Shown: positions 1 through 58,018, counted from the first letter of the whole stretch. The stretch is 58,018 nt of DNA, filler included, from Stramenopiles sp. TOSAG23-6 (GCA_900128565.1; 4 parts of 4 records of this genome joined end to end with filler, not necessarily neighbours in it), one strand, 5' to 3'. Translations and numbers: made by a program. The notes: generated from the letters alone by a model not told the origin.

Positions 1-65
1 AATCGTTAGGTACAAAATTTCGTAACNAAAAANAANTTCNAANTTNAAAAAAAAACAAAACATAC
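1..65 (-). mobile_element. Introner-family intron (partial, 5' part)
   Basis: Minus strand reads CAT|GTATGTTTTG...TACGAAATTTTGTACCTAACGATT. Truncated by the contig start. Confidence 0.85.
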
Positions 66-800
66 ATGCATTGATGCAAGTACTTCAGTGGAACAAGTTT
101 GAGCACGGCCTAAAGCGTCTTGATATTTTTTACTTAATTTTCCTATCCAACGTCCAAAAGGTAAACAAACTAAAACTAAAACTAGTACAACACCAACAAT
201 TATGCCTGTCAGTTTTGGTGAAATATAAAACATGAGAGAAAACGCAATAGAAGTTTTCACAAAAGATATCAAAGCATCAGGCATTGATGTAACTGTTGCT
301 GCCTGTACTGTAGTTGTATCTGACCCTAGACGTGAAACAAGTTCCCCGCTCTTACGGTGATCAAAGAATCCAATTTCCTGAGAAAGGATGGAGCGATATA
401 AATTATTACGAAGACGAGCAACTACACGTTCCCCCACTATACCTGTGATTGAAGAGCGGATAAAAGTGGCAAAAGCTCCACCAAAATGGCAAATGAATAC
501 TAAAATCATGGCCTTTTTAACTTCACTTTCCATTTCTTGCTTACTCTTTGTAGGATCCACAATGACATTGTAAGCATCCCTTAATATTATTGGAGGTGCC
601 AGTCCTTGAAATTCGCCAATTATAGACATTAAAAATGCAAAAAGAAGAGCAGGCCATTCGGGTCTTGAAACTAGAATCAACTTTTTGAAAGAAACTTTTG
701 TCTTTACGTCCTCAGCTTCGTCTTCTTTCGACTCTTGCAACATCTGAATCTTGATATCTTCATTGTTTATACTATCAGTTTCTTCGTATTTAATTTCCAT
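66..800 (-). CDS. ABC transporter B-family (ABCB10/TAP-like) half transporter, exon 1 (TMD); continues beyond contig start
   Basis: Motifs GERVVARLRNNLYRSILSQEIGFFD and SGELVSRLGSDTTTVQ. The ORF runs into an intron-family donor GTATGTTTT at 65. Confidence 0.9.
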
Positions 801-1181
801 TGTTTTTTATACTAGCAGTAAAGGGAAGTGAATGAAAAATATTCTAGATTTAGCTCAACGTCAAAGAATATGGAGTCTCTTGGCTGAAAATGTAATTGAG
901 AAAAATAATAATGAAGAATATTAAGAGAAACTCTCTTTTCCTCTCTTTTTGCGCTAGAAGTCAGTCGGTCCTATTTTGATGTTTCAAATCGAAATATTTT
1001 GAAAAAAAAAAACACGAAAGTGAATAAAGTGTTACGATTTATTTATCATATTTTTTCGTTTATTTTCTAGATTTCTAAAGTATGGTTTATAATAGCTCAC
1101 CTATAGCTATAGATTACATCAAATGGACGACCAATAACTGCCATAACAAATATGGCTACTACTACGGTACCAATATGCAGC

Positions 1182-1946
1182 CTATCTTTTTCTCTGCCGT
1201 TTCCACTTGTAAACAGCAGGTTTGTCACCTTCTGCATCTTTCACTTTTTTCCTACGACCTTTGCCTTGTCTATCCTTATGGCTTTGTAAATGTTGACGTA
1301 ATAAATCCATTTTTTCTACTCGTTTAATGCGCTGTCCAAGTTCTGAATATGCTTTATCTCGTTTCTTTTTAATCTTTGAAAGAGCTTTTAAGTCAGTTTC
1401 CAATGGAGCATCTACCAAAGAAGTGCGAAGAGTTTCTAGTCTAGGCCTATTAAAAGTTCGTTCAGCCAACTCTGGCACAGTATCAAAATGTTTACTAGCG
1501 CTCCACGACTTGACATCCTTTTTCTTATCCAGAAAAATTGTATGTTGTCCACGTGATTTTTCACTGAGAAAGTGGAGGTTAGCTTTTAACTTTTCAACCC
1601 TACGCTTCTCTTTTACTTCTGTCATTGACGCATACATAAGATCCTGCGTTTTTAACAGTTTCTGCATATCAGCTGTCATGCTAGCACCTTCTCCTCTACG
1701 ACTAATCTCATGTACACCATTTTTAGTCCGAGAATTTTTCATAGCAAAGTAAAATTCATCTGGATTACGAAAAGCTGCCTTGTCCTTCAATGCATTCAGT
1801 CGTTTGCGTTTTTTTGAGAAATCCTTTGCACGCTTCACATAATCTTTGTGCTTCTCTAATAGACCAAGTTTCTTTCTTCCATGTGGCTGAGCACGCTCTC
1901 TGTGTTCACGTCGGCGTTCCACATTACGCCATGAAGCTCCGGGCAT
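1182..1946 (-). CDS. UTP11: U3 small nucleolar RNA-associated protein 11
   Basis: HRERAQP...LGLLEKHKDYVKRAKDF, RNPDEFYFAM, and C-terminal YKWKRQRKR. Confidence 0.95.
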   Translation of the reverse strand: MPGASWRNVERRREHRERAQPHGRKKLGLLEKHKDYVKRAKDFSKKRKRLNALKDKAAFRNPDEFYFAMKNSRTKNGVHEISRRGEGASMTADMQKLLKTQDLMYASMTEVKEKRRVEKLKANLHFLSEKSRGQHTIFLDKKKDVKSWSASKHFDTVPELAERTFNRPRLETLRTSLVDAPLETDLKALSKIKKKRDKAYSELGQRIKRVEKMDLLRQHLQSHKDRQGKGRRKKVKDAEGDKPAVYKWKRQRKR

Positions 1947-2178
1947 CTTCTAAGTACAATTACGTGAAACGATTGAACTTGTTTGTAGTACTTACTATAG
2001 TACTACTGTGGTCAAAGCACACTGAACTGAACTTTAGGGTACCGGGTACTATGTAATTACACGAAATAAAGAAATAAAAAAAAAAGATATCGGCATTTTT
2101 CCTGAAATTTGGAGATTTTGGATCTTTTATTTTTTTTATCTTGAATATCTTTACTTTTTGGTACTATTTTCTTTTACG

Positions 2179-3131: not shown

Positions 3132-4886
3132 TTAGACGCTTAACAAATGCCCGTGCTCAAAGACACAAGATTGACAAACACTGCGATATTCTTTTTGTTT
3201 AGGATATTTTTGAACTACGGTACATTCTGCACAGATTACTTCGCCACATTCACCACACACATATCTAGATACTGTTTTAAAATCATTTCCACAACTCAAA
3301 CATGAATTGATACCATCAGTTGGAACGTTCCATGATTTCTTTTCGTCTTCAGACATATCACCTAGTATCATTCCATCAAATGATGTTGACGTTGTTATTG
3401 ATCCAGATAAAGTTAATGTTTTAGCCTCTAAACACGCATTAAATATTTCGTATGGAGTTGGGGTTTGCACAAAGTTTTTCTGTCTAAATTCAAGAGTTAC
3501 AATCCCTGTAGAACTAAACACAAATGTACCACCAAAAGAGTATAATGCACCACCACTCGCTGGCGAAGTATCCCCGATACTCTTGGAATTTTTGATCGCT
3601 AACATAGTCTCTATATTTAATAGGTCTAAAAACGACCCATCTTTACGACACCCGAGAGCAGAGAACAAATCACCACTTACATCAACAACAAAATCGTCTT
3701 GCCAAAAATCTCCCGCCAAAAATGAATAAAGACCACGAATACCTTTCCCAACCCCAACAACATTGAAACCTACGTCTTTTAGCGTTTTTGATGTTTTTGC
3801 AAATTTTTTAAGCTGCTCTCGACAAATGCCACAACCATATCTACGTATCAAGTATAACACTACATTATTTCCCTTCAATATGTCTGTAATAGGAATAGAT
3901 TTTAGACAACCATCACCTGTAGGGGTACTAACTTGACATTTGTAAAGCATTTTGTAATTAATACTTCCTTCACGAGTAACTTCATCATCCGATACTAAAG
4001 GTGAACACATCAGAGGAGATGAGCACATGAGAGGAGAATCACAAATAGCAGTAGAGTCATCTATTGAATCATGTTTACCGAGTGAAAAATCTTTTAACGC
4101 CATTTCATCACCATGGATATCATCAAATAAAGCGGATAAATCTTCGGTGGTCGTCGAATCATTCAAATCATATGAAAATAAATCATCCAGAAATTTTGCA
4201 CTTTTCGTGTCATCCGAACCAGGGGAGTAGTCTGATATTATATTTTCAATCTTCTTGAAACGTTTCAACCTTGCATTCCGAGGTTTCTTAGCAACTTGCC
4301 TTTTCTTTTTCCTTTTATTCATCAGTTGTGTACTAGCTTTTAACAATTTTTCTATATCAGGAGTTGAATGACTTAACTCCACTTTGGAAAGAGAAGATAA
4401 CAACACGCAACTAAAACGCATCGCGTTCGTTGGAGAGGGACTGTTTGCAGTTTTCTTATAATGGGCGATTGACTCATTGTAGTCATCTACCGATACTATA
4501 TAAATATTATCCACTCCTGCAGTGTACACTAATACGAAAGAGTTGATCCGAATATCCAAAATTTCACTAACACGTACGTAAACAGCGTAACAAGAACTTA
4601 AGTTCGCGGTCACACGATACAAACGCTTGTTGAAAGAAATTTTTACTACTTCCTCCTTCACGGGGATTACTTTAGCCTTTTTCTTTACTTTATTGGCACG
4701 GTGTACCTTCAACTTGGACTTCTCGCAGGGATTACACACTAGTCGACGTCCGTACCTTTTTCGGGTACACTGTTCCCCAGGCTTGTGAGAGCAATTCGGA
4801 AAACCTGTACATCGACAATGAGTACACTTTGTATGGAGTGGGGTGCCTTCAGGACACCAAGGACATGGAATGCTTGAACGACCCAT
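3132..4886 (-). CDS. Multidomain protein: N-terminal Cys/His-rich region, peroxiredoxin-like (AhpC-TSA_2/PRXL2) domain, C-terminal FYVE-like zinc finger
   Basis: IRRYGCGICRE...GGTFVF (PRXL2-like). WNVPTDGINSCLSC...YVCGECGEVICAEC...RSVCQSC (FYVE-like). Confidence 0.75.
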   Translation of the reverse strand: MGRSSIPCPWCPEGTPLHTKCTHCRCTGFPNCSHKPGEQCTRKRYGRRLVCNPCEKSKLKVHRANKVKKKAKVIPVKEEVVKISFNKRLYRVTANLSSCYAVYVRVSEILDIRINSFVLVYTAGVDNIYIVSVDDYNESIAHYKKTANSPSPTNAMRFSCVLLSSLSKVELSHSTPDIEKLLKASTQLMNKRKKKRQVAKKPRNARLKRFKKIENIISDYSPGSDDTKSAKFLDDLFSYDLNDSTTTEDLSALFDDIHGDEMALKDFSLGKHDSIDDSTAICDSPLMCSSPLMCSPLVSDDEVTREGSINYKMLYKCQVSTPTGDGCLKSIPITDILKGNNVVLYLIRRYGCGICREQLKKFAKTSKTLKDVGFNVVGVGKGIRGLYSFLAGDFWQDDFVVDVSGDLFSALGCRKDGSFLDLLNIETMLAIKNSKSIGDTSPASGGALYSFGGTFVFSSTGIVTLEFRQKNFVQTPTPYEIFNACLEAKTLTLSGSITTSTSFDGMILGDMSEDEKKSWNVPTDGINSCLSCGNDFKTVSRYVCGECGEVICAECTVVQKYPKQKEYRSVCQSCVFEHGHLLSV

Positions 4887-5161
4887 CGCACAAAATTTTT
4901 AGTCGTTAATTATTCACGGAACACACCAAAGCTTACTGGTAGTACACCATGATGTAAAGCCCGACGACACAGGAGAACACAAGCAAAGTCCCGACAAGAT
5001 ATTATTGGGACCGGGTAACTATAACCGGGTACCGGGTTTCGTGACCAATCTGATCGGCGACTCTCTTGTCTCTCTTGTCTCTTGATACGGGTACTACAAC
5101 ATAAATTATTATTCATAAATTATATTTGGTAAGATTCAGATTTATTTTGTGACTGCTAGTA

Positions 5162-5512
5162 ATGAGTTTGAAACGCATCCTTTTATTAATTCGCGATGTT
5201 CCAAAGACGACAAAGTTCTATAACGAAGGATTAGGTCTTCCTGTAATTCACGCGTCTGACACGTGGGCAGAACTCAGTACCAATGGAGGGACATCTATAT
5301 GTTTGAGTCATACAGAAGGTGAAGCGGCGTTAACTACGGGTTATAGTCCTTTATTGTCCTTCAATGTTGAAGATTTAGATGAGACTGTTAATAAGATGCT
5401 GGCTCTTGACGCCACACTCGACGGGGCTATTAGATATGAAGACAGTGGTCGTGTCGCTGCACTGCGCTCTCCTGAAGGACAGATGTTGACAATATTTGAG
5501 CCAAATAATTAA
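5162..5512 (+). CDS. Glyoxalase/VOC-family protein
   Basis: KFYNEGLGL, LSFNVEDLD, ALRSPEGQMLTIFEP. Confidence 0.85.
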   Translation: MSLKRILLLIRDVPKTTKFYNEGLGLPVIHASDTWAELSTNGGTSICLSHTEGEAALTTGYSPLLSFNVEDLDETVNKMLALDATLDGAIRYEDSGRVAALRSPEGQMLTIFEPNN

Positions 5513-6063
5513 TATTCACCCCGTCAAGTATGGCACTGATTTTGGACAGATTATTAATATATATATAGTAGCATAAATGAATGTACACTGTCGAATAGAA
5601 CTTGTATGTTGTTTAAGAGGGATTCCATTTCAATTTTGTAAAGCGTTTTGAAAAAGAAAGTCATAATTGAAATAACTACCTCAAATAAATGAGTGTTTAA
5701 ATGATCTAAAAATATGTTTTTGGCATCAGTTTTATTTTACAAATATATTGAGCTAGTGATTCCAATGTTTCAGTGCTAATGTGTTATATTTTATATTTAG
5801 AAAAGTTACTTAATTACTAGCCATATCCTATGAAATTGTAGGGTTTAAGGTTAGGTGACTTAGGTCACGCCAAAGTGACACGTGTGTTTGCGTTTGATCC
5901 TAACAGAACAAGTAGCAAGACAAGAGCTACACCTAGCTACGTACTACCTGCTTATATGGATACGGGAACCAGACGTTCTTTGTATTGTTAATTGCGCTAC
6001 TTGATACATATTCAATACATGTCCCAAGAGTATATTACACTGTAATACTCGCTATTGGTTTTT

Positions 6064-6699
6064 ATGTTGCGCACTCTTTCAGCTAGAATATTTTCACCAA
6101 GTTGTTGGACTCGTCTCTATAGCGTAAATGGTAATGAAGTTAAGCGTGGTATGTTGGTTTCTTACAAAGGCGGTTTATGTAGAGTTGTTGAATCGCGTAG
6201 TGTAAAACCTGGAAAAGGTGGAGCGTTTCAACAAGTCGAACTTCGAGATATCGAGACTGGAAAGAAAAGGCAAGAACGATTTCGTGCTTCAGAAAAGGTT
6301 GAAATTAAGAGACTCGATAAAGAAGAAACATATCAAGTTCTTTACCGGGAACGCGATGGATATTTTGTGTTAATGCATGCGAAAACATATGAACAAATAG
6401 ATGTCCCCGAACACCGTGTTGGCGACCCAGGTCATCATTTTCTCAAAGATGGAATAGAAGTTGGTGTGGAATTATTCGAAGGTAAACCAATGTTCTTACA
6501 AATGCCAAAGAAAGTGCCTTTTGTTGTTGAACGAACAAATGCACCGGGGAAAGACTCTTCCCGAAATACAGATATATACAAAGATGCAGATTTAGTAGGT
6601 GCCACCAAATCTGTATTAGTACCTCAATTTATCGACACGGGTGATATTGTATTTATTGATCCAATAAATGGTGAATATAGAGGGAGGCAAAAAAAATAG
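6064..6699 (+). CDS. efp: Elongation factor P, probably mitochondrial
   Basis: VKPGKGGAFQQVELRDI loop and VPQFIDTGD..GEY C-terminus. Arg/Ser-rich N-terminal presequence from ATG 6064. Confidence 0.9.
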   Translation: MLRTLSARIFSPSCWTRLYSVNGNEVKRGMLVSYKGGLCRVVESRSVKPGKGGAFQQVELRDIETGKKRQERFRASEKVEIKRLDKEETYQVLYRERDGYFVLMHAKTYEQIDVPEHRVGDPGHHFLKDGIEVGVELFEGKPMFLQMPKKVPFVVERTNAPGKDSSRNTDIYKDADLVGATKSVLVPQFIDTGDIVFIDPINGEYRGRQKK

Positions 6700-6783
6700 A
6701 ATTAGTAACCCTAACCCTACCTTGTATTTCACAAATACAATTTTGTAGAGAATTAGTAACCTCCTTTACCACTTAATGCAAAA

Positions 6784-7447
6784 CTACGCAGGCATAAGAG
6801 CATCAAGAATACGATTATCATATACGGAAAAAGCTCTTTCGGTGGGTAGATTTACATCACCCATACCTGTAAATCCGGGTGATCCATAAAATAACGCATT
6901 TTTTTGGTCTTGTGGTTGATTATTAAAAAAACGATGCTCGCCACTCTCCAGGGTTCCAGGGATATTACCGAAGCCTCTCCGTTCTTGTGGGTAAACGTGG
7001 TAGGATTCTCCTTGTTGTTGTTGTGTGTATGGTGTATGTGTAGCAAACGTGGAAGGGTTATCTAACCAATCGCTGTAGATAATGTGTACAATATGAAAGT
7101 TATATAACAAATAAAAGAACAGTAGTGTCATAAAATATTGTATTGAACGTATTTATGATATTTCAAATACTGTCAAATTCGTTGCTTGAGTAAAAGAATT
7201 TGCTTCGCCCTATTCCTCTACCCCGACCTGAATAATGGTTATTTAAGTTTAAACCTAGTATACGTCTATGACTTCCTCTCACATTAGATTGATTGCTTTT
7301 ATTCTTCACGTTCATACGATCATAAGAACCGGTAAACGTTATTGTTGCTGTTGTACCGTGCACTAATGATTTCTTTTGAGTGGAGCTATAGCATAAAAGA
7401 ATATCCGACAAATGAAGAAGTAATAATATACTGATGAATTTTAACAT
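6784..7447 (-). CDS. Secreted hypothetical protein, probably two exons (7447-7171, 7085-6784)
   Basis: A signal-peptide ORF and a downstream ORF can be joined in frame by removing GTATTT...TTGTAC (7170-7086). Confidence 0.45.
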
Positions 7448-7695
7448 ACTTTTCCTTTTCCATGAGAAGACCTAGTAAAACGTCCTACACAGACAGATTT
7501 CAATAACACAAACATAATAATTTTCAAAAAATATAGCAGAAAATCCGATCTTCGTTCCTACTAAACGCAAAAATATCCGTTAAAATTTTTGTAAAATCCA
7601 AAAACTGATCCCGTATCCAGTCCAGTTCTACGCTTGTGCATCCTAAAACAGACGAGCTAACAAATTCAAAGTAGTTTTAAATTTGATCAATTGAA

Positions 7696-8211
7696 ATGCG
7701 TCTTCTTGCATCCAATATTCAGAGAATTTTCGCCTCGACAATTGTAGTTTTACTGTATGTCTCTAGACCTGCGTTATCCCAGATGAAACCGGAAATGATG
7801 ACACAGAAAGAAGCTTACCATAAATCGTACATGACTGAATTGCGTAACGTTCATGTCGGTGCCTCTTCATTTATTCGTGCAATTAAGCAAACGAATTCTT
7901 CAAAAATGCCTCGTAAAATCTTTAAGGACTTGGGTACTCGTTTTCATACGCTTCACATCAAAGCAAATCACCCTAGTGTTGACATCGAAGGACAAAAGGT
8001 TCGCGATGAAATTTCATACTTATACGATACTATGAACGAAATTCTTCATTTAGACGGACCAGGAAGAAAACATCGAAAGCATGGATATCGAACTACTGCG
8101 AAAGACTATGTACGCTCTCGATTGTTAAGCTCTGAGGTTAAGTCAAACGAAATGAAGAAACGTGTCATGATGAAGTTACGCAAGGAATTCGATTGGGAAA
8201 AAGATCTCTGA
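7696..8211 (+). CDS. Hypothetical secretory-pathway protein (signal peptide, C-terminal EKDL)
   Basis: 171-aa ORF with a hydrophobic N-terminus and a KDEL-like end. Confidence 0.65.
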   Translation: MRLLASNIQRIFASTIVVLLYVSRPALSQMKPEMMTQKEAYHKSYMTELRNVHVGASSFIRAIKQTNSSKMPRKIFKDLGTRFHTLHIKANHPSVDIEGQKVRDEISYLYDTMNEILHLDGPGRKHRKHGYRTTAKDYVRSRLLSSEVKSNEMKKRVMMKLRKEFDWEKDL

Positions 8212-8377
8212 TAAACTTTATTGTTTCTTCAACGAAATTGTTTCTTCTACATTAATATTGAATTTATCTATCAAATCTTAAAATTAAATTATTATTATCG
8301 ATAAGTTCAAATATATTCAATTTTCTAGCCAATATTTTATTTTTGTCAACACAAAACTGTTCTGTTTTTTTAAAAGG

Positions 8378-9733
8378 TTAGTTGCGAGTGGCATTTTTAG
8401 CTGCAGCCCACCACTGTGGCTGAACTCCTTTCTTCGTATCATCCAAATATTCATTCATTGCTGCTCTGAATTCGTGCACTGAGACAATTCCATCTCCATT
8501 AAAGTCTTTTGCGGTGGCAGCTCTCCACCAGATACATTGAAACTGCTCGTCGGTAAAATTGTATCCGATATTTTGGAAAATATCTCGAATTTCTTCCTGT
8601 CCTCGATCATCAAAAAAATCATTATTATCAACACCTTCACTGACAAAATGACTTGGTGCAAGGAGCTCTTGTGCAGTGGGATCTGTGCCGTAGTTATTAT
8701 TATCTGCTACTGACCGCCGTTTTGGAACAGGTCTGTCAGTTCGAAGAGAAGGACAACCGAATGTTCGACCATCAATATTAAAATTTCGAGTACCCCGTTT
8801 AATTGCTCTACCAAGATCATTATCAGGTAGCTGTTCTTCAGTTGTATATGTTCCGCGTATGCATTCAGCAGCCCCCCAAGCATCTTTTCCTAGTTTTGCG
8901 ACTGAAGACTGAGTTCCGAAAGTGATTCCATCTGGAGATGATTGTCCCAGATTCTTTGGTTTACCCAGTTGTTCTCGTTGCAGCTGATAATCAAATGTAT
9001 TTTTTGAAATAATATATGTATCTGGTGCATACGGGTTACTAATATTCTTTTTAAAACAACTTGCAGTATTCATATCAAGTCCTGCTACATCGACTTTTCC
9101 AAAACGGTGAGTTGTGGAATTGATTCCTCCCCAGTCATAACTTCGTGACTTTTGATTCCCTGGTGGTATCGTTCCATGACTTTTTGTGTATATCTTATCT
9201 TTCTCTGTTGTGTCTTCATGGTTTTCTGGATATATCAATGGTTTTGCAAATGACTCATTAGCTTTTTGGGCACCAACAATACCAAACGCATATTCTTTTT
9301 TTAAAACGTGTCCAGGTAAAGAAACATTCTTTACTTGGCTGATACTTTTTCCGAGAGGTTTACTTTTCAGTCCACGATACATTCGTTCCTTGTTGGCCTC
9401 GATTAATCTCTGAGCTTGAGACTGTGGTCCATTAGCCCAGGCGTCGTTTATATGGTCACTGCTCTTTGAATTCAACCCGAAGGTCTGGTCAGAGGCTGAG
9501 AGTTTAGACCTTGCTGCCCTGATCATAGCTACGTCATCTGCTGTACCATAATGAATGTGTCTATCACCTGGTTTAAAGCAAGACTTTCGGAATTTTTTAA
9601 TTTTATCCGGAGTCGCTGGTCGCTCTGGCACATTGAGGCAATATTTTGTTCCTTCGTCAGGTACGACCGAAGACACACCTGCAGCTCGCACTGCTTGGAC
9701 GCCATACCCTGACATTGATCGTCTATTTGACAT
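8378..9733 (-). CDS. EFHB: EF-hand domain family member B (CFAP21), flagellar microtubule inner protein
   Basis: FGCPSLRTDRPVPKRRSVADNNNYG motif, repeated xFGx units, C-terminal EF hand DFNGDGIVSVHEF. Confidence 0.8.
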   Translation of the reverse strand: MSNRRSMSGYGVQAVRAAGVSSVVPDEGTKYCLNVPERPATPDKIKKFRKSCFKPGDRHIHYGTADDVAMIRAARSKLSASDQTFGLNSKSSDHINDAWANGPQSQAQRLIEANKERMYRGLKSKPLGKSISQVKNVSLPGHVLKKEYAFGIVGAQKANESFAKPLIYPENHEDTTEKDKIYTKSHGTIPPGNQKSRSYDWGGINSTTHRFGKVDVAGLDMNTASCFKKNISNPYAPDTYIISKNTFDYQLQREQLGKPKNLGQSSPDGITFGTQSSVAKLGKDAWGAAECIRGTYTTEEQLPDNDLGRAIKRGTRNFNIDGRTFGCPSLRTDRPVPKRRSVADNNNYGTDPTAQELLAPSHFVSEGVDNNDFFDDRGQEEIRDIFQNIGYNFTDEQFQCIWWRAATAKDFNGDGIVSVHEFRAAMNEYLDDTKKGVQPQWWAAAKNATRN

Positions 9734-9945
9734 ATCCAAATTGATAAACTAAAGGGTTTCTCAATTGAAGGACACCCTTTACAGCTATCTATAGTATAAG
9801 GCAAATTATTCTATGATGTATTTGAGAAGATGATTTGCTTCTTCAAGATGTAAAGTGTAACGGTAATATATTTATTTGACAAAAAAAACAGGTTTGTTCA
9901 AATATATTTTTTTATCTTTTTTATAATTATCTAAATTAGAATTCA

Positions 9946-14415: not shown

Positions 14416-14508
14416 GTATGTTTTATTTTTTTTCAATTTCAAATTCGATTTTGTTTCGTACGAAATTTTGTACCTAACGATTTTTTTTTGAAATATTTTT
14501 CCAAAATA
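14416..14508 (+). mobile_element. Introner-family intron (truncated at contig end)
   Basis: AT|GTATGTTTTATTTT...TTTCGTACGAAATTTTGTACCTAAC...CCAAAATA. Confidence 0.85.
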
Positions 14509-14608
14509 NNNNNNNNNNNNNNNNNNNNNNNNNNNNNNNNNNNNNNNNNNNNTTAATTAATTAANNNNNNNNNNNNNNNNNNNNNNNNNNNNNNNNNNNN
14601 NNNNNNNN
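14509..14608. other. Artificial contig linker (N-TTAATTAATTAA-N)
   Basis: Six-frame stop linker flanked by Ns. Confidence 0.98.
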
Positions 14609-14705
14609 TTTTTTTTTTTTTTTTGTATGATTTTTTTTTCGTACGAAATTTTGTACCTAACAATTTTAGTTTTTTTTTTTTTGCGAAATATTTTTCCAAA
14701 TACAT
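14609..14705 (+). mobile_element. Introner-family intron (partial, 3' part), AT acceptor
   Basis: TTTCGTACGAAATTTTGTACCTAAC...TTTCCAAATACAT|. Confidence 0.8.
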
Positions 14706-15126
14706 GTTCCTCTTCCGTCAGAAAAAGGGAAATGGTAAAATTTGGAGAGGAGGGGATGATAATCCATTTTTTATCTTTGGAGTGTCCGGTAAAAATGTTG
14801 ATGAAAATAAGATGTATTTTTATAATCCAGCTGGTACGATAAAAGATATGATCATTGATGCTGCTACACAAGATGATGTAGGTACTCGTTGGGGAAGACA
14901 ATGGTATACTAAAAACGCACCGTTTCGGATTGAGGAAGTACGTTTTTTTATCATGAATTTCAAATCTTTTTTTTTCGTACGAAATTTCGTACCTAACGAT
15001 TTTTTTTTGTATTTTTTCACAAGGCATGTACCCGATTTTGAGAAGAAGAGTCTTTGCGGGAAGAGCACGTGTCAATGTTTCCTAAGTAAGAGACCCAGGC
15101 TGGTAGATCCAGTGGTCAAAGCATAA
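14706..15126 (+). CDS. Hypothetical protein, 3' exons (14706-14937, 15028-15126)
   Basis: Coding-like segments between intron-family copies. Confidence 0.6.
14938..15027 (+). mobile_element. Introner-family intron, 90 nt, GT...AT (in frame, no stop)
   Basis: GAA|GTACGTTTTTTTATCATGAATTT...TTTCGTACGAAATTTCGTACCTAAC...AAGGCAT|GTA. An AG 4 nt upstream of the AT is an alternative acceptor. Confidence 0.7.
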
Positions 15127-22056: not shown

Positions 22057-23870
22057 TTATACCATACCCTTGTACGTTTGGATTCCCTGAGTTTTCTCAT
22101 ACATTTTTATGTCACTTTGCTCAGTTGTGCGAGGCCTGGCATATTCATCATCTGCTATTTCTTCATATATACGCTGAACACTACTATTATGGTTAGTATA
22201 ATCCAAAGTATCATTCACATTAGACATCATATTTACCTGCCGATCTTGACCACCCGCAATTCTCTGATGATAGCCCCATAGCCTAGCTTGTTGTTCATGA
22301 TACCTTTGATATTGCCTAGCCTGTTGTTGCATCTGTGGTGGGGATAATCTTTGCCATCCCGTGATCGAGTTACTACCACTATAAAATGGTGCATTCGTTT
22401 GATTTTCGTATAAACGATAAGCTGCATCCTGCTCAGCACCAAGTGAAAATAGCAACACGAATGCTGTAACGAGTAATGCAAATTCGAAAACAATACAGAT
22501 AGGAAAAACTACTAAAAAATAAACATTCCCATTAAAAGAATGAGGTTTCTCCGGTTCATGAATATTTTGTAATATTGCTAGAACAACAGTTTGTGTGGCA
22601 ATAACCATACATGTATTATGAAAAATATTTCAAATGTTTTTTGTTAGGTACAAAACTTTGTATGAAAAATAAATTTTAAATTCATGATGAAAACATACAT
22701 GTACTAATAATGCATACAAGCATTAACTCGCGATAGCTTTTCCTTGCCCCATAGAATCCACTTACCGCAGATGCCATATCAAACAAACCTGTCCCGATCA
22801 GAACATATATTGTGAAATTTTTTTTTTAATAAAACATTCGTTAGGTACAAAATTGCGTATGAAAAAAAACCTAATTTGAAATTCATCATGAAAACACACC
22901 CATCCGTAATTACACATCATTCCTTCTTCGGAATGTGGATTGGTGCGCCCACAATCATCAAGACCAATCCAAACACCATAGCAGGTTTGTACTACTCCAC
23001 CTATGGCTACTATTACTGCTATCGCTTGAACAGCAAGCACGAGACGCGCCTGATGGTCATCTCGCAGAGCTCTCCAATTAAATGTACAGTGACAAACTTT
23101 AAAACAACAACAGCAGTGCTCTACACAACTGTGAAAAATACGAAAAATACCTCCTGATGCTGGGTTAGGACAAGGTAAATCAACCTCATCCCCGGTACTT
23201 CTTTGAATTTCTTGTAATAATCGTTCAAATGTCAAATCAATTTGTTCGTCTAATTTCGCTGAGCACTCCACGAAAGGACACCCCCAAAGACAAGCTAACT
23301 GCCTTCCTTCTTCCTTTGAAACCACTCATGTATTGTAAAAAAAATTAAATTCGAAATTTGTTAGGCACAAAATTTCGTACGAAAAAACAATAAATTTGAA
23401 ATTCATAATGAAAACGTTCGTTCATTGGTGAGATCACACTTCGTTCCTACTAAAACACGTGGCACAGACTTTGCATCCTCTCTGCCTAAGAGAACTAGTA
23501 ATCTATCGTTGATAAACTTTGCTATTTCGAATGAATACCGCGAAGCAACGGAGTAAACAATAAGATATCCGTGTACATCGATGCAATTACGAGGATGAAA
23601 CATACTTAACTGGTCCTGCCCTGGAGTATCACGAATATGAAGATGAATTTTAGCTCTTCGATACCTGAACATTTTTTCAAAAGTATTTCCAATTGTTGGG
23701 CTATAAACATCCACAAACTGGTTATCAACGTACCGAATGATTAAGGCAGACTTTCCCACACCTGGATAACCCAATACAACTACAGCACGATCCACTACTG
23801 AGTTACGCCGACCGTGCCTACATCTACCGCTCATGGGTGGCGAAGGAGAAAAGGCTACTGAAGCATCCAT
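22057..23870 (-). CDS. Rheb-like Ras GTPase fused to a C-terminal 4-TM (tetraspanin-like) domain; exons 23870-23420, 23327-22900, 22804-22699, 22610-22057
   Basis: GYPGVGKS, YSPTIGNTF, DTPGQD, GTKCDL and ECSAK motifs. Three intron-family copies join four exons in frame. Confidence 0.85.
22611..22698 (-). mobile_element. Introner-family intron, 88 nt, GT...AT
   Basis: ACAT|GTATGTTTTCATCATGAATTT...GTACCTAAC...AATACAT|GTATG. Confidence 0.85.
22805..22899 (-). mobile_element. Introner-family intron, 95 nt, GT...AT
   Basis: TGG|GTGTGTTTTCATGATGAATTT...GTACCTAAC...CACAATATAT|GTTCTG. Confidence 0.8.
23328..23419 (-). mobile_element. Introner-family intron, 92 nt, apparent GA...AT
   Basis: GAAC|GAACGTTTTCATTATGAATTT...TTTCGTACGAAATTTTGTGCCTAAC...ACAATACAT|GAGTG restores DLTNERVVSKEEG. 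Confidence 0.8.
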
Positions 23871-34831: not shown

Positions 34832-34894
34832 TTCAATTAAGAAGAATGTTAATGTAGGAGTATATTTTTTTATGCTTTTGATTTCTAAATAAGT

Positions 34895-43545: not shown

Positions 43546-43645
43546 NNNNNNNNNNNNNNNNNNNNNNNNNNNNNNNNNNNNNNNNNNNNTTAATTAATTA
43601 ANNNNNNNNNNNNNNNNNNNNNNNNNNNNNNNNNNNNNNNNNNNN
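43546..43645. other. Artificial contig linker
   Basis: N-TTAATTAATTAA-N. Confidence 0.98.
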
Positions 43646-48841: not shown

Positions 48842-48925
48842 GCACGAATGACGGAGTGGTCTAACGTGGTGCTTTCAAGCAGCATTCCTCGCATGAGGGC
48901 CAGGGTTCAAATCCCTGTTCGTGCA
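48842..48925 (+). tRNA. tRNA-Leu(CAA)
   Basis: Acceptor stem GCACGAA/TTCGTGC, D-loop GGAGTGGTCTAA, anticodon arm GTGCT-TTCAAGC-AGCAT, long variable arm, T-arm CAGGG-TTCAAAT-CCCTG. Confidence 0.93.
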
Positions 48926-49691: not shown

Positions 49692-52324
49692 TCAAGGTAT
49701 ATGAGAAGAAGCAATTTGAAGACGTGCTCGCTCTCTAGCACGTTTACGTGCCGCTAATATATCAATTTGTGCTTGTTTCGTATAGTCAACAAATACATCT
49801 TTTGATATTTTTGCGGGTCGTTTTGTAGCTGCACCTCTAGCTAATATTTCAGCTTGTTTTTTATCAAATTTTTTCTTGTTTTTAAGAGATGAACTTTGAA
49901 ATGATGTTTTTTTCATACCAAAGCTATTTTTTTTATTGTGTTGAAATGATGTTTTTTTCACACCAAAGCTATTTTTTTTATTGTGTTGAAATGACATTAT
50001 TCTCTTGTTTACTGGTATTTTACTATTATTAGTAACATTTCCAAATAAATCAGATATTGTACCTGTGTTTTCATTATTTTCATTATGTTCATTATTTTCA
50101 TTATTTCTGATATCTATTGTAGTTTCTAGTAATTTTGATATTATATTTTCGATACTTCCATTATACTGTTTCATTGCTTCGATACATTTGTTTCTTTCAA
50201 AGCCCATATTTAAAAGTACCTTCAGATCTGATTTTGAAGTAATTGTTTTATTTTCTTTTCTTTGTTTTTCGTCTCCAAAAAAATCAATATAATCATTTTC
50301 ATTTGTTTTTGTTTCGACATTTACAATAGTATTATTGTTTTCTCTTTCTTGTCTTACAATAGTATTATTGTTTTCTCTTTCTTGTCTTCGATGTCGTAAC
50401 AAACCTGATGATGTGAGATCATATATAGATGGTGATGGTAGTTCTGATGGAGGTGTATTGTGGTTTATATCACTCAAATCATTTGAATCGTTGCTATTTG
50501 GTAGTAAAAGTGGATTAACTATATTATCTGTATTTAAATTATTCACATTTGCATGTATTGTATTAGATTTATATTTTGGTGAATTTATGAGTCTTTTAGC
50601 GCTATTCGCTGCAGCCGATTGTATAGATGTATTTATAGTATTCATTGTAGATGTTTTAGAATTTTGATGTTCATGTCCATCACTATAGTGAACAGAATGT
50701 ATCACACGCACAGTATCATTATTCACCATTACATCACTTACAGGAATACTATCTGAGATGTTTGAAATATCTTTTGGGGGAAATCCAATTAAGCATTTAA
50801 TATGAGAAGTTTGACTCCAACCACTTAATTTTAAAATTGATTTTCGAAGAGAGCGTAACGGTAATGTGGGATCAATATTGTGTAGAGTATGTGTCGTATT
50901 GCCGCTCAAGTCAGAGCGTATACGAATTCTCACTGACCAAAAGTCAGTATCACATTTCNTACCTAATGAATTTCGAATTTGTTGAGTGCTAATTTCACTA
51001 CTACTATTATGATTATCATTATTATTATTATTGTCATTATTATTATTATTACTACTATTATATAATGTTTCTACATATTGTGAATTATTACTGACTATCG
51101 ATGCTTCTACTTTGTTGCTTTTTACATTATAATTAGTATTACTTTTTACATTATAATTAGTATTACTTTTTACATTATTATCAGTTGTATTTGTCGATTG
51201 GTGAATATTCCATCTATTACCTCTTTTATACGTAAAAAGTGGCGACTTCCCTCCACCCAAGACATTACCAATACCAGTAAAACCTGTCGTTGCGATAGGA
51301 CCTCCACTACGCTTATTTTTTCTTCGTTTTTCTCGTTCTTCACGAGCTCTTGTCTCTGCTGCTGTATCGTTTTCATCTGTGTTACCATCAACCACATCAC
51401 TTTTTGGTGGATATGGTGGTGTATTCTTATTACTATTACTACTATTATAGTTCTTATTACTATTATTACTACTATTATAGTTCTTACTATTATTAGGGAG
51501 ATGCTTTATTCGAGGCATGATCCTTCCAGGTGTGTATTGTGAAAAAATATTTAATTTTGTTTTTGTTAGATATGAAATTTCGTATGAAAAAAAATATATA
51601 TATATAAATTTGAAATTCATGATGAAAAAACATACGTAATACCAGTATTCAATATAGTTGACTTTATGTCCAGAGGCGGCGCGAAATCGACAACAAGGTC
51701 AACATGTCCATATAAGCTAACAGCTCTTTCAGGTTTCAATTCTATTACATCAAGATAGTATTGTACACCTTGCCACTCGAGCATTACTGTCTGCCGCATC
51801 GTTAGTGCTGAAAACATACTAAATGTATTTTCTAATAATTTTTTAGGACCAACTGTTGCTGCCACATCGAGAAACGCCGAAGAATGTGGTTGAAAACGAC
51901 AATATGTTCCCCGTTTTAACTCCCGACAACTTCGAAGAGTGGCTGTGTCGCCTTCGTTCAANGAAAGATTTTTCATCATCCNGAAAGGTAAGAACGCTTT
52001 TCCTTCTGGTGCTGAGAATTCCATTACACCACAAAATTGTAGTTTTCGCTTTCGTGTAGTGTTTAATGTCGAGGTATTATGTTTTTCTACACGTCGTTTT
52101 CGAGAAATCTCTTCTTCTTTATCCGTATTTGTGACTCGAAAAAGTAATGGATAAGGAAGCCCAAGAACAGATATTTGATGTAAAGCTGACTGTGGTAATA
52201 CAACTTTATCACCATTCTCCAATTGCGGTTTGTCAACACAAGCAACACTAAAGCAACTATAACTCTCTTGGAACAAAGCAGCTCTCTTTGGACTCCGAGA
52301 ACGTCTCTGCGAAGGAAGATCCAT
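49692..52324 (-). CDS. UFD1-like N-domain protein with ubiquitin-like and UBA domains; exons 52324-51636, 51531-49692
   Basis: GDKVVLPQSAL, CGVMEFSAPEG, VDFAPPL (UFD1). LIGFPPK (UBX/UBL). LLNMGFERNKC (UBA). Confidence 0.85.
51532..51635 (-). mobile_element. Introner-family intron, 104 nt, GT...AC
   Basis: ATTAC|GTATGTTTTTTCATCATGAATTT...CATACGAAATTTCATATCTAAC...CACAATACAC|ACCT. Confidence 0.8.
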
Positions 52325-55453: not shown

Positions 55454-55552
55454 GTTGCTTTAGAAACAATAATGTAGTATGTAAAAAATAAAAGTTATTT
55501 TATTACTCTATATAATGATGTGCAAAAAATAAAAATATGTTTTAAAATCATT

Positions 55553-56806
55553 TCATCTACAACATGCACTCTCAATACTCTCTTTCTTTATCTTTGTATT
55601 TTTATTCATCGGAGAATTCTGAAGAATCTTTAACTGCTCATTTGCCTTTGCAGTTTCAAGCTCCAATTGTAATATTTTTTGTCTTGTCTCTTCCCTTTTT
55701 GCCTCTTGCATTTGTATTTTTTCAAGCATTTCATTCTCTAGTTTCTGTTGCTCGCTTAACAGTGCTTGTGCCTCTGTGATTTCTTTCAGGCGAAGATCTA
55801 TCTTTTCTTGCTCTTCTTTGTATTTTGTCTCAAAATCAGTTGCATCTTTTTCTTTCTTCATACGTAAGTTTTTTCTGTGTTCCTCGGCGCCTCGTCTTAA
55901 TTCGGCACCTTCTTCCAGCAATGCGTACTGGAACCTTGAAATACTATCCCGAAATTTTTCGATTCCAGTGTTTTGCCTTTCTATCTCGGAATTCAAAATA
56001 TTCTGAAATTTATCTCGCAATGTTGTAAGATCTTTGTTTCTAGTGCGATTTAGATCATCCAGGCCATTTATGACATCTGATATCATTTCTTCAGTTGGAG
56101 AGCCGCAATCTCCAACGCTAGAAAGTTTGTTTTTTAACCTATTGAAATCTGCCTTATGTGAAAGTTGCATCTGCATCAATTCATCATAGAAGGCTAAGTG
56201 TAGCTTACTATTCTCTTGAATTATTCTAGCGTGTTCAATCTCTTCCTGTGTAAGACGTCCCAGATCCTCTACAGATGATTTCGTTTCTCCCGTTGCTATA
56301 TTGAATGCGTGTTTATACCCAGCAGCATTTTCAGTTTCATAATACTCCGATGGAAACATTGCCAAATGATGCTTACTTACTTCGCGTTCAGCATCATTCT
56401 TAACAGTGAAAAGAACTCTAGGATGTTCTGGTTTAGGTTCTCCCGGCTTCCGTTTGTTTGCGGGTATAAGGCAGGCCACTACCGAATATCCAGCATCATT
56501 ATGAGTTTCTCCTCTAACTAAAATGACATCATCTCCAAAACCCTTATATAAGTCACTTTCGCCAGCTTCTGTCGGAAATTTAATTTCCTTTTGATTTTTT
56601 TGATTTCCATTTTGCTCATCCAATTTTATAGAATTGTAAAAATCCTTAATGACTTGTTCATCACTCTGTATTTGGTTGTCGTCAATTTTAACACCATAGA
56701 GGGTATCAACATCATTCCTTCTAACAGAATCGTTCATACCATAGATGGAATCCAACTGAGAACCATACACCAATTCGTCTTCTGCAACGTCCGAAGTGCT
56801 GAACAT
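55553..56806 (-). CDS. Coiled-coil hypothetical protein ending SACCR
   Basis: 417-aa ORF with an E/K/Q-rich coiled-coil C-half. Confidence 0.75.
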   Translation of the reverse strand: MFSTSDVAEDELVYGSQLDSIYGMNDSVRRNDVDTLYGVKIDDNQIQSDEQVIKDFYNSIKLDEQNGNQKNQKEIKFPTEAGESDLYKGFGDDVILVRGETHNDAGYSVVACLIPANKRKPGEPKPEHPRVLFTVKNDAEREVSKHHLAMFPSEYYETENAAGYKHAFNIATGETKSSVEDLGRLTQEEIEHARIIQENSKLHLAFYDELMQMQLSHKADFNRLKNKLSSVGDCGSPTEEMISDVINGLDDLNRTRNKDLTTLRDKFQNILNSEIERQNTGIEKFRDSISRFQYALLEEGAELRRGAEEHRKNLRMKKEKDATDFETKYKEEQEKIDLRLKEITEAQALLSEQQKLENEMLEKIQMQEAKREETRQKILQLELETAKANEQLKILQNSPMNKNTKIKKESIESACCR

Positions 56807-57145
56807 CCTAACTATATGGTGATCGTTGTATCTTTTATTAATCGGGATTCGTCTTATATTTATTGTTTCTTAAAATATGTTCTCTTAAAAGAAGATACCG
56901 TAACAAGCAAAACCGTTACAAGCGGTACAGCGCTATATTTCCAAATATCTACTAGCTAGGGTTGGGGGAATAAAAAAGTTCAGCTTGGAATCAAAATATC
57001 TCGAAAAAACGAAATCTTTTTTAACCTTTTGCGTTTTCTTCAAACAGTAAAATTAGAATACCTGTGTATTATTTGCAAGAGCTACGAGTGTTTTATACCA
57101 ATGAGAGGTACTTACTTCGATTATGTAGATTTGTGATATGTTCCC

Positions 57146-57929
57146 ATGATAATTTATCCATTTAGGCTCTGTAGAACTCTCACTGGGCGATTTTCTTACG
57201 CATTGCCCAGTACAATTACCAAAAAGTTACCACTTGTTGTACCGCAGTTTCGACAGTATAGTTGTAGGTTCAGTGATACTGAGCTGCAAAACGAGTATAT
57301 AAGAGCCCGCTTAGGAACAAGTTTCATTGTAGTAGATAAACCTGCTGATATAACGTCTCACGATGTTATTGATATCATACGTGCTGCTACTGGGTTAAAA
57401 AAAGTCGGCCATAGTGGCACACTGTATTTTTTCTAAATGGTACAAATAGTATTCAACGATTCATCACTCATAGAATTCTTATTTTTCATGCATAGTACAA
57501 ATTTTATATTAAGCACAATATATAGATCCCTTTGCAACGGGTTGTTTGCCGATTGCTCTAGGTAAAACGACTAAAACGATTCGATTCTTGGAAGAGTATG
57601 AAAAAAAATACGAGGCGACAATGTATTTTTTATTTTTTTGAAAATTTGAATTTATTTTTTTCGTACGAAATTTTGTACCTAACAAAAAAATCTAAAAATT
57701 TTTTTTGAAATATTTTTCCAAAATACATTTCCTTTGGATTGAAAACATCAACTGGTGATGTTGATGGAGATATTTTACAGTCTGAAGTGATTCCAAATTT
57801 TTTAAAAAATATTCATCAAGATGAAAATAAACGGAAAGTCCAATTCGTATTGGATCAATTTCTTGGTAAAAGTGTACAGAAGCCTCCTATTTTTTCTGCA
57901 GTCAAAGTAAAGGGGAAAGCCTTATATAA
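57146..57929 (+). CDS. truB: tRNA pseudouridine(55) synthase TruB, organellar; exons 57146-57423, 57524-57622, 57729-57929 (3' partial)
   Basis: [12 protein letters not shown], spliced [54 protein letters not shown]. Confidence 0.93.
57424..57523 (+). other. GT...AT intron lacking the recognisable introner core, 100 nt
   Basis: ACACT|GTATTTT...CACAATATAT|AGATCCC restores catalytic GTLDP. Confidence 0.85.
57623..57728 (+). mobile_element. Introner-family intron, 106 nt, GT...AT
   Basis: ACAAT|GTATTTTTT...TTTCGTACGAAATTTTGTACCTAAC...CCAAAATACAT|TTCC. Confidence 0.9.
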
Positions 57930-58018
57930 GTACGTTTTCATTATGAATTTCATTTTTTTTTTTTTTTTTTTGGTTTCGTACGAAATTTTTTACCTAACAA
58001 ATGTTGAATTTATTTTTT
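57930..58018 (+). mobile_element. Introner-family intron (truncated at window end)
   Basis: TATAA|GTACGTTTTCATTATGAATTT...TTTCGTACGAAATTTTTTACCTAAC. Confidence 0.85.

Follow-up and report, generated by a model that had tools for sequence, protein, structure and literature searches.

Introns almost universally end in AG at their 3' side. Against this background, introners are intron-generating transposable elements that have been described from Micromonas, Aureococcus, Symbiodinium, Chrysochromulina, Florenciella and others (PMC9860276; PMC12130899). The borders described for them are GY-AG (rarely GA), and a 2025 introner survey gives 3' sites as AG or AC, families with unfamiliar sites having been re-inspected and those that failed discarded (PMC12130899). 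In Amoebophrya, a parasitic dinoflagellate and marine protist, repeated introns without GT-AG were found only after transcripts had been aligned without motif priors; as reported, they have direct repeats overlapping their borders but no dominant dinucleotide, inverted repeats of 8-20 nt pair their ends, and parts of U1 seem to be missing (PMC7789003). The nonconventional introns of euglenids, which are also removed without GT-AG, are described as having variable borders and a defining pairing of their ends (PMC4770533; PMC12501133). In the tunicate Fritillaria borealis non-AG 3' ends, including AU and AC, are reported as routine with a major-type spliceosome, GT/AG being kept in <10% of introns, with U2AF duplicated and divergent and m6A of the U1/U6 snRNAs changed (PMC13326754). 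GT-AT introns as such account for 7 of the 66 non-canonical U12-type introns listed for human and mouse, where they were splicing-competent in experiments and where one conserved U2-type case, in DGCR2, is given (PMC1557818). In Physarum they form 17% of ca. 1014 non-canonical U12-type introns, for which a transposon origin and a co-evolved U12 snRNA have been proposed (bioRxiv 10.1101/2020.10.12.336362).

The introns studied here, from a stramenopile close to MAST-3, resemble the described introners in that an aquatic protist carries many near-identical, short, AT-rich and sense-oriented introns in genes that are unrelated to each other, that their removal restores the mRNA exactly, and that they have short direct repeats at their borders, which may reflect target-site duplication. 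In contrast to the introners described, their 3' border is AT. With the Amoebophrya introns they have in common the repeated occurrence and the direct repeats at the borders, but their borders are uniform (GT..AT), their donor and branch site are of the classic form, and an end helix is unsupported; neither the variable borders nor the end pairing of the euglenid introns is seen. Their terminal dinucleotides are identical to those of the mammalian and Physarum GT-AT introns, which are, as described, either isolated exceptions, with a few in each genome, or equipped with U12 donor motifs, whereas here non-AG ends are the rule in every intron seen and occur with U2-type motifs. The 5' ends of introns of Fritillaria borealis, an animal, are reportedly mostly other than GT, whereas the present introns have a canonical 5' end and only their last base is altered (AG to AU). 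Our literature searches found no account of such AT-ending repeated introns.

A repeated intron family in the window

The window, i.e., the whole stretch of 58,018 nucleotides in four joined contigs, contains 14 complete introns and four partial copies. Their coordinates, taken from a preliminary description, were verified, and the sequences match what was described:

1-65, minus strand: 5' portion of a family copy with its donor GTATGT at 65, truncated at a contig end and located within an ABC-transporter-like ORF (6-806, minus strand); nhmmer E 9.5e-7
14416-14508, plus strand: family copy complete but for the final 3 nt, where contig 1 ends; nhmmer E 5.3e-14
ca. 14609-14705, plus strand: 3' portion of a family copy, ending ...AAATACAT, with which contig 2 begins; E 4.4e-10, envelope 14612-14705
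14938-15027, plus strand: family intron, putatively GT..AT, 90 nt; nhmmer E 3.5e-16
16518-16607, minus strand: family intron, GT..AT (or TG..CA, 1-nt ambiguity); RNA removal seen
16923-17017, minus strand: family intron, AT..AT, A at +1; acceptor set by RNA
17083-17171, minus strand: family intron, GT..AT (or TA..TG); donor at 17171 set by the start of an RNA piece, exon-length arithmetic
22611-22698, minus strand: family intron of the Ras-like gene; P0145 alignment, boundary scan
22805-22899, minus strand: family intron of the Ras-like gene, GT..AT (3' ...ATATAT); P0145 alignment, boundary scan
23328-23419, minus strand: family intron of the Ras-like gene, donor GA (GA..AT, AA..TG or AC..GA); Pfam Ras, P0145, boundary scan
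24887-24989, plus strand: first family intron of the AI-2E transporter gene, GT..AT (AT..AC equivalent); open 1386-nt model
25149-25243, plus strand: second family intron of the AI-2E gene, GT..AT (AT..AC equivalent); open model, boundary scan
25600-25696, plus strand: third family intron of the AI-2E gene, GT..AT; boundary class ranked first in comparison with P0001 and P0004
36000-36090, minus strand: family intron of the class-3 lipase gene, GT..AT, upstream ACAT repeated; nhmmer E 1.2e-13, in-frame join
51532-51635, minus strand: family intron past the UFD1 domains, putatively GT..AC; nhmmer
57424-57523, plus strand: intron of the TruB gene, the only non-family intron, GT..AT (or TG..TA); TruB_N placement, no nhmmer match
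57623-57728, plus strand: family intron of the TruB gene, GT..AT (AT..AC equivalent); TruB_N contiguity
57930-58018, plus strand: 5' portion of a family copy in the TruB gene, with GTACGT, where contig 4 ends; nhmmer E 5.9e-9

Thirteen of the 14 complete introns and all four partial ones are copies of one repeat family of ca. 90-105 nt. A search of the 58-kb window with an nhmmer profile built on these 13 introns (57424-57523 was not alignable and was omitted) recovered 17 family copies, with E values from 1e-6 to 4e-16, spread over at least eight genes, all in sense orientation relative to the host ORF or gene; the remaining seven matches (E 0.06-8.8) were antisense and all lay within known copies. 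This recurrence is far beyond chance, and with many similar introns in unrelated genes the family is of the introner type. Four of the eight contig ends fall inside family copies. An additional copy, on the unrelated metagenome contig L003, likewise gives an in-frame join with GT..AT borders. In the DNA run X2, 7035 contigs match a 14.4-kb stretch, and ca. 1000 contigs in each of two RNA runs match the family, in both cases stacked at the intron positions, with depths that are not copy numbers. The inverted repeat of the family is short and imperfect. The upstream exon end duplicates at least 2 nt of the intron 3' end in 8 of 15 cases, including 'ac' beside the sole AC intron, and the repeat varies in length; AT stands directly upstream in 8/18 (P 1.6e-4), CAT in 4/18, and G downstream in 10/16.

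Since 17 of the 18 segments are copies of this family, the sample speaks mainly for one family. Intron 57424-57523 has no nhmmer match, yet its termini GTATTTTTT and CACAATATAT are common with the family, and this single non-family intron suggests that the AT-acceptor rule is wider than the family. Use of AT acceptors throughout the organism would be an extrapolation from the one non-family intron seen.

Removal at non-AG borders

In sense orientation the 3' end is AT in 13 of the 14 complete introns and AC only in 51532-51635, and the donor consensus GTAYGT is upheld, with GT in 12 of 14 and the exceptions ATACGT (16923-17017) and GAACGT (23328-23419); both patterns had been recognized in the preliminary description. 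With the copy on L003 included, 12 of 15 introns are compatible with GT..AT, the remainder being one AT..AT, one GA..AT and one GT..AC. A boundary-shift scan found an AG-ending boundary that yields an identical mRNA, i.e., the terminal AG of U2-type introns, in 0 of the 15. The earlier claim that no intron requires GT-AG also stands, a canonical GT-AG intron being demonstrable nowhere in the window.

For the gene at 16-18 kb, removal was observed in RNA. A 1736-nt contig of a poly(A) metatranscriptome (X5 record 9) matches 16206-16517, 16608-16922 and 17171-18196, and its 64 intervening letters fit the 65-nt exon 17018-17082, the inner boundaries of which the RNA contigs set only as a sum; this one contig bears three precise removals. 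The exact 16517|16608 joint is present in RNA contigs of both X5 and X6 (X6 record 15) and has depth 0 in X2, the only DNA run compared, in which a metagenome contig (X2 record 2) continues unspliced across 16519-17132. Because the spliced RNA contigs and this intron-bearing DNA contig have four variants in common (16761, 16822, 16823 and 16881), they represent the same genotype. At 16923-17017 RNA pieces stop exactly at 16922 and no shift gives an equivalent mRNA, so that the AT acceptor of this AT..AT intron is set by the RNA contigs, as is the AT end at 16518. In 17083-17171 AGs lie 8 and 19 nt 5' of the AT site and appear to be bypassed. This RNA evidence covers one gene in two runs of a single study. 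A further contig from an RNA library (X7 record 23) is unspliced across 16955-17212, and the ca. 1000 family-matching contigs per RNA run indicate that retention or DNA carry-over is common.

In the other genes, removal restores open frames, as had been proposed, of 1386 nt in the AI-2E gene and 1539 nt in the Ras-like gene. The four-exon model of the latter is identical to P0145 at 216 of 323 positions and gap-free at all three junctions; P0145, whose contig may be either DNA or RNA, has a single ORF running across the three intron positions. When 307-739 open in-frame combinations were compared, the class made up of the earlier boundaries and any shifts with an identical mRNA scored highest for the three Ras-like introns and for AI-2E intron 3. 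A 10-nt direct repeat covers both junctions of 22611-22698, for which no AG-ending in-frame alternative exists within ±24 nt; the best such alternative scores 17 lower for 22805-22899, and those for 25600-25696 score 24-32 lower (against P0001 and P0004). The Pfam Ras profile is contiguous over 23328-23419 (2-121 | 122-161). In the TruB gene, with the join at 57424-57523 the TruB_N profile starts, at its position 16, with the first complete codon of exon 2, and the profile is contiguous across 57623-57728 (16-47 in exon 2; 50-106 in exon 3, beginning at residue 2) if the split codon is included.

The claim that downstream AGs give a frameshift or stop held for three of the introns for which it was made: the first such AG after 24887-24989, where homology does not fix the boundary, those following 36000-36090, where the Lipase_3 domain lies in the next exon, and every AG near 57424-57523 lead to both. 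It did not hold for 25149-25243, where a GT..AG pair at +4/+4 is in frame and open; with a score of 556 against 562-566, this alternative is disfavoured by homology, but weakly. An open in-frame AG also lies 9 nt downstream of the putative AC acceptor of 51532-51635. The AG options that had been left for two introns fared differently: that for 17083-17171 is disfavoured by the arithmetic of the RNA contig, whereas that for 14938-15027 stands. In the latter the 3' motif is mutated (..AAGGCAT), and use of an AG 4 nt upstream shifts the frame to an early stop, which could be tolerable in a last exon; retention of this 90-nt, in-frame and stop-free segment may be an alternative to removal. Homology leaves four junctions unfixed (14938, 24887, 25149 and 51532), three of which have open alternatives. 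The proposed removal at non-AG (AT) acceptors is borne out by the RNA contigs for one gene and by gap-free continuity of homologues or profiles at six more junctions. Removal at non-AG sites is shown at the RNA level, and conserved protein sequence is regained.

Splice signals and alternative explanations

In U2-type introns the branch site (yUnAy) precedes the 3' end by ca. 18-40 nt and has a pyrimidine-rich tract after it, while U12-type branch sites lie at ca. 10-26 nt without such a tract. The introns studied here run from GTAYGT over CTAAC to a terminal CA(A/C)AATACAT. Sixteen of 18 donors (12 of the 14 complete introns; the rest are L003 and three partial copies) begin with GT, as in U2-type 5' splice sites. 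A branch-like CTAAC occurs in 12 of 15 introns (CTTAAC in one, CTAAG in one, none in one), and its candidate branch A is located 31-46 nt from the 3' end with a T-run after it, as would be expected of a U2-type branch site; the stretch from there to the intron end is AG-free in 11 of 14. It seems probable that these are genuine stramenopile introns, mostly of one mobile introner-type family, that are removed at GU...AU boundaries.

GT-AT is also a documented, rare U12-type boundary tolerated by the minor spliceosome, and the branch motif ACCTAAC is similar to the U12-type branch motif TCCTTAAC. Nevertheless, it is unlikely that these are U12-type introns whose motifs have been transformed and which owe their spread to a transposon, as proposed for Physarum, since the donors are of the classic U2-type GTAYGT form, with RTATCCTT in none of the 18, in line with the earlier observation, and the putative branch A is too distant and has a U-rich tract after it. 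An Rfam search of the 58-kb window did not find U11, U12, U4atac or U6atac, its sole match being a tRNA. A removal in which base pairing between the two ends of the intron acts as the guide, apart from normal splice-site reading, as suggested for euglenids and Amoebophrya, is very doubtful. When the first and last 10 nt are set end to end, 101 of 150 positions are pairable, the best of 16 registers (others 44-95), the terminal bases always so (G-U 13, A-U 1, G-C 1); a GUAU/AUAC helix closes 5 of 14 introns in RNAfold, and the direct repeats at the borders recall the layout of direct and inverted repeats described for Amoebophrya (PMC7789003). Swapping of partners, however, gave a mean of 100.6, with 54% of 5000 permutations reaching at least the observed value, and thus no covariation; RNAalifold found 0 consensus pairs, and folding is weak (-5.4 to -13.1 kcal/mol, mean z ca. 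-0.6). The borders are uniform instead of variable and the canonical donor and the branch site are conserved, so that the combination of variable borders and a stable end helix that defines nonconventional introns was not found in this set, and the structure-guided mechanism offered in the preliminary description receives no support.

Least credible is the reading in which the segments stay in the RNA and the joined contigs go back to alleles that lack the introns, to excision from the DNA or to artefacts of assembly, the genes being read through or pseudogenes. Read-through of 14938-15027 and 16518-16607, both 90 nt, in frame and stop-free, would keep the ORF, and the unspliced X7 contig comes from an RNA run. 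This reading is largely refuted by the joined form, which is confined to the RNA runs (depth 0 in the DNA run X2), by the variants that connect it to the intron-bearing DNA contig, by the three removals on one contig, and by the conserved profiles and homologue colinearity regained in three other genes. Germline-limited DNA segments of the ciliate type (IES) were considered and rejected, the 16517|16608 joint having depth 0 in the one DNA run, which carries the segment.

Proposed mechanism and implications

For introns removed at GU...AU boundaries, the major (U2-type) spliceosome is, by motif resemblance, the most likely machine. The 5' splice site would be GUAYGU, and the branch site would be the CUAAC that comes after a small palindrome (CGTACGAAATTTYGTAC) and before a U-rich stretch. 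The 3' splice site would close the conserved motif CA(A/C)AAUACAU of ca. 10 nt, ca. 35 nt downstream of the branch A, in which the A at -2 presumably retains its usual role and U would be the last base. As a DNA element, the family may have spread by insertion at (C)AT|G-like sites. The known GT-AT introns, as described, indicate that G at +1 and U at -1 are chemically workable, and Fritillaria borealis, as reported, offers an earlier case of a retuned reader of the 3' splice site. Introns with ...ACAT ends in place of AG bend a basic rule of splicing, and standard gene finders would fail on them.

Intron boundaries from RNA and homology

The preliminary description, based on the DNA sequence alone, held that introns in all four contigs are spliced at AT or AC instead of AG. 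Each coordinate pair that it listed does yield the sequence that it reported and, read in sense orientation, 13 of the 14 complete introns end in AT and one in AC. Its GT donor consensus holds for 12 of the 14, since 16923-17017 begins with AT and 23328-23419 with GA. Routine splicing at AT acceptors is backed by homology and, for one gene, by RNA.

Three RNA runs and one DNA run were compared with contig 2 (14,609-29,055), and among the matches listed the RNA evidence concerns one gene only. A 1736-nt contig (record 9) of the poly(A) metatranscriptome run X5 aligned to 16206-16517, 16608-16922 and 17171-18196, and the 64 letters between the last two pieces correspond to the 65-nt exon 17018-17082 minus one base that is ambiguous at the joint. 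The 16517/16608 joint was found again in record 15 of X6, another run of the same study, and has a depth of 0 in the seawater DNA run X2, where a contig is continuous through 16519-17132. The variants at 16761, 16822, 16823 and 16881 are common to this DNA contig and the spliced RNA contigs and, therefore, the intron-bearing DNA and the intron-less RNA represent one genotype. With the RNA contigs, 16518-16607 is defined at both ends, 16923-17017 at its acceptor and 17083-17171 at its donor; of the inner boundaries of the 65-nt exon only the sum is defined. If this sum is split as originally proposed, splicing of 17083-17171 bypasses two AGs, which precede the AT site by 8 and 19 nt.

Homology bears on two further genes of contig 2:

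22057-23870, minus strand: Ras/Rheb-like GTPase with a ~350-aa C-terminal extension containing a cysteine cluster and hydrophobic segments
24162-25842, plus strand: eukaryotic AI-2E/PerM-family transporter with a ~230-aa N-terminal part without Pfam match

The four-exon model of the Ras-like gene gives an open frame of 1539 nt, and its product is identical to the metagenome protein P0145 at 216 of 323 positions, with all three junctions free of gaps and the closest gap 8 residues away. Its extension is conserved in part (67% identity over 323 aa with P0145; 40% over 309 aa with P0146, a second metagenome protein); the predicted architecture is an unusual one, that of a membrane-anchored small GTPase. 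The AI-2E model has an open frame of 1386 nt and homologues of 400-580 aa in metagenomes (P0003-P0005, P0007). Donor and acceptor positions were shifted within ±24 nt, and every combination with an open frame was scored against homologues. For the three Ras-like introns and AI-2E intron 3 the proposed boundaries, or shifts giving the same mRNA, formed the top class; AG-ending alternatives scored 3-32 points lower and do not exist for Ras-like intron 3. Neither HMM nor pairwise scans picked a boundary for the first two AI-2E introns, where conservation is poor. The Ras Pfam profile is contiguous over an intron (2-121, then 122-161). In the TruB gene, the TruB_N profile matches 16-47 in exon 2 and 50-106 from residue 2 of exon 3, positions 48-49 being taken up by the split codon and one further residue, and every AG near the intron 57424-57523 leads to a frameshift and a stop.

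When boundaries are shifted without changing the mRNA, none of 15 introns (the 14 and a copy on an unrelated metagenome contig, L003) can be made to end in AG. Twelve of the 15 allow GT..AT and only six allow AT..AC, which is impossible in the RNA-supported introns. Three introns deviate in this listing:

16923-17017: AT..AT, unique
23328-23419: GA..AT, AA..TG or AC..GA
51532-51635: GT..AC; an in-frame AG 9 nt downstream is also possible

An AG alternative had been left open for 14938-15027 and still stands; the one at 51532-51635 had been overlooked. A scan of ORF junctions for more introns, canonical ones included, returned 2230 candidates at 58 donor-like sites and is too noisy for any GT-AG intron to be called or excluded, and a Pfam search of the ORFs of 43.6-49.5 kb revealed no split domain. 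Candidate donors of GTAAGT type adjoin the start of the Utp11 gene (1950-1995, minus strand, where a 46-nt GT..AG segment is possible in the 5' leader) and lie at the stop of the ankyrin gene (55450, plus strand).

The intron repeat family and its putative insertion sites

A profile search revealed that the introns share a repeat identity, which is absent from the preliminary description. The profile was built from 13 of the 14 introns, leaving out 57424-57523, which does not align. In the window it found 17 copies (E 1e-6 to 4e-16), i.e., the 13 introns and, precisely at ends of contigs, four truncated copies:

1-65: truncated copy
14416-14508: truncated copy
~14609-14705: truncated copy
57930-58018: truncated copy

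The other matches are only seven, all weak, antisense and within known copies, because the core is palindromic. The consensus runs from GTAYGTTTT through a variable AT-rich part, a palindrome-plus-branch block CGTACGAAATTTYGTACCTAAC and a T-run to CA(A/C)AATACAT. Each of the 17 copies, like the one non-family intron, is in sense relative to the ORF or gene that contains it. Four of the eight contig ends fall within copies, so the assembly broke at the repeat.

In the seawater DNA run X2, 7035 contigs match the 14.4-kb contig 2 with a pile-up at intron positions, which argues for a very abundant family, although these depths do not equal copy numbers. Contigs matching the family number ~1000 each in X5 and in X7 (an RNA run of another study) and 64 in X6. 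At intron positions of contig 2 (e.g., 24731-25694) the summed depths of X5 and X7 reach thousands, versus ~10 on exons, and, in contrast to the spliced poly(A) contigs from X5 and X6, a contig of X7 (record 23) is unspliced over 16955-17212. From this contig and the many family-matching RNA contigs it follows that retention or DNA carry-over is frequent; the high depths could stem from retained introns, from excised introns that are stable or from DNA carry-over. Joints such as 24989/25147 also occur in the DNA run and connect different intron copies, and were rejected as repeat artefacts.

A scan of metagenome contigs for the conserved core gave five loci, of which L003 alone (E 9e-12) holds a full copy; its ends are those of the family, and its exons join in frame. 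L004 matches part of the core (E 2.4e-5), and the weak matches L001, L002 and L005 are confined to the core. The sole locus in genome contigs (L006) is a chance match within a Bacteroidales gene. Viral contigs yielded no loci with the core pattern and 19 with a looser pattern of the 3' half, none of which fits the family profile at E<=1e-4; the one inspected (L008) sits in a phage coding region.

The end of the upstream exon repeats the intron's 3' terminus by at least 2 bases in 8 of the 15 introns, including 'ac' beside the sole AC intron, and a 10-nt direct repeat lies on either side of one intron. Upstream AT (8/18), upstream CAT (4/18) and downstream G (10/16) are enriched over the window background (P 8e-5 to 4e-4). 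These footprints fit a family that would insert at (C)AT/G-like sites with a short duplication; the border repeat varies in length, and no parent element was seen in the window.

Splice signals and comparison with known systems

The motif CTAAC is present in 12 of the 15 introns, with near variants in two and none in the non-family intron 57424-57523; it lies 31-46 nt before the intron end and is followed by a T-run. Judged by their sequence, the GTAYGT donor, CTAAC and T-run are ordinary major-spliceosome signals. The final ten bases are as conserved as the donor, and the non-family intron has its termini, GTATTTTTT and CACAATATAT, in common with the family, a hint that selection by splicing acts on the termini. 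The interval between branch motif and intron end is free of AG in 11 of 14 copies, and common descent of the copies alone may explain this.

The preliminary description had also offered a structure-guided mechanism, and this option found no support. RNAalifold gave no consensus pair over the introns, and single-sequence folds are weak (-5.4 to -13.1 kcal/mol; mean z ~-0.6 versus shuffles). The first and last ten bases, laid end to end, are pairable at 101 of 150 positions, the best among 16 registers, but exchanging partners among introns gives the same number and hence there is no covariation. These data are best read as an introner-type family whose members a major-type spliceosome removes, accepting a 3' site that ends in ...AAUACAU.

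Among the signals of eukaryotic gene expression, the terminal AG of major-type introns ranks with the most constant. To our knowledge, few lineages have dropped it wholesale, i.e., Fritillaria, Amoebophrya and euglenids. Fritillaria borealis has 3' AU and AC ends and a duplicated and divergent U2AF (PMC13326754); Amoebophrya carries repeated non-canonical introns with no dominant dinucleotides and end-pairing repeats (PMC7789003). GT-AT is described as a rare variant of the minor spliceosome, with one conserved U2-type case in mammals (PMC1557818; bioRxiv 10.1101/2020.10.12.336362). Loss of Prp18 in yeast activates non-YAG 3' sites (PMC10711555), which points to second-step factors as candidates for a change here. 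For aquatic protists, introners with GY-AG borders are well documented (PMC9860276, PMC12130899), in contrast to the AT 3' border of the family described here. The 2025 survey reports 3' sites of AG or AC, with families showing unfamiliar sites re-inspected and failures discarded (PMC12130899); as it presents them, published surveys begin with annotated introns and expect AG or AC 3' ends (PMC12130899), and so could miss non-AG families.

The organism and implications for its genes

The window consists of four contigs of ~14.4 kb each with a GC content of 30-39%. Its gene set is plainly eukaryotic, with single-exon genes predominating, and encodes Utp11, a HECT ligase, ArfGAP, UFD1, EFHB, an ankyrin protein, a TSP1-domain protein, a class-3 lipase, the Ras-family GTPase, the AI-2E transporter and TruB. 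Other features are:

14509-14608, 29056-29155 and 43546-43645: artificial linkers (44 N, a 12-letter stop-rich spacer, 44 N)
6046-6696, plus strand: elongation factor P ORF with all three EF-P domains and a ~28-residue N-terminal extension
8381-9748, minus strand: ORF with the C-terminal EF-hand domain of EFHB
48842-48925, plus strand: tRNA-Leu(CAA), 84 nt

The tRNA is the single match of the Rfam search, and the sole Rfam or ARAGORN match, in the window. Single N bases are scattered at 27-46, 50959, 51962, 51982 and 53240, six of them within the partial copy at the start of contig 1. An organelle is the probable destination of the elongation factor P. EFHB belongs to the proteins of cilia, and its presence would suggest a flagellum-building organism.

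The closest non-self match of the Utp11 protein (91% identity) is a EukProt entry that we take to be a MAST-3 single-cell assembly, and the following matches are from oomycetes, brown algae and eustigmatophytes; on this basis we place the organism near MAST-3 within the stramenopiles. DNA almost identical to that of the window is present in seawater metagenomes and poly(A) metatranscriptomes. In the literature searched, neither GT-AT nor other non-AG introns are described for MAST or other stramenopiles, although supplements may hold gene-structure tables. In the accessible text of MAST genome papers, 'splice' and 'canonical' are absent from PMC5778133, 'intron' from PMC8163842 and 'splice' from bioRxiv 10.64898/2026.04.17.719054.

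It is possible, if somewhat short of probable, that in this MAST-3-like lineage the 3' rule followed by the major spliceosome for practically all introns has shifted from AG to AU, with the A at -2 retained and the last base read through pairing with the first; this rule would have allowed, or been driven by, a transposon-like introner with an ...AAUACAU end that populated its genes. The first/last-base pairing assumed here (G-U, A-U or G-C) is seen in all 15 introns (13, one and one, respectively). If true, a free-living protist would have rewritten the terminal-dinucleotide rule, which would explain the few gene models in its genomes. In Table 1 of PMC5778133, MAST-3 assemblies of 19-21 Mb have 3289 and 2694 predicted genes, and MAST-4 assemblies of 28-33 Mb have 4652-8537; a link between the low MAST-3 counts and introns of the type found here is speculation.

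Introns 14938-15027 and 16518-16607, each 90 nt, are in frame and stop-free, so ORF callers read through them (e.g., the 284-aa frame 16176-17030), and intron-derived peptides will therefore contaminate the predicted proteins of the lineage. Such genes will be broken up or read through by gene finders built on GT-AG. The finding would extend introners to a non-AG border and, with a canonical donor and branch site and the last base alone changed, would provide a clean natural experiment on the choice of the 3' splice site, i.e., on the pairing of the first and last nucleotides and the roles of U2AF1, Prp8, Slu7 and Prp18.
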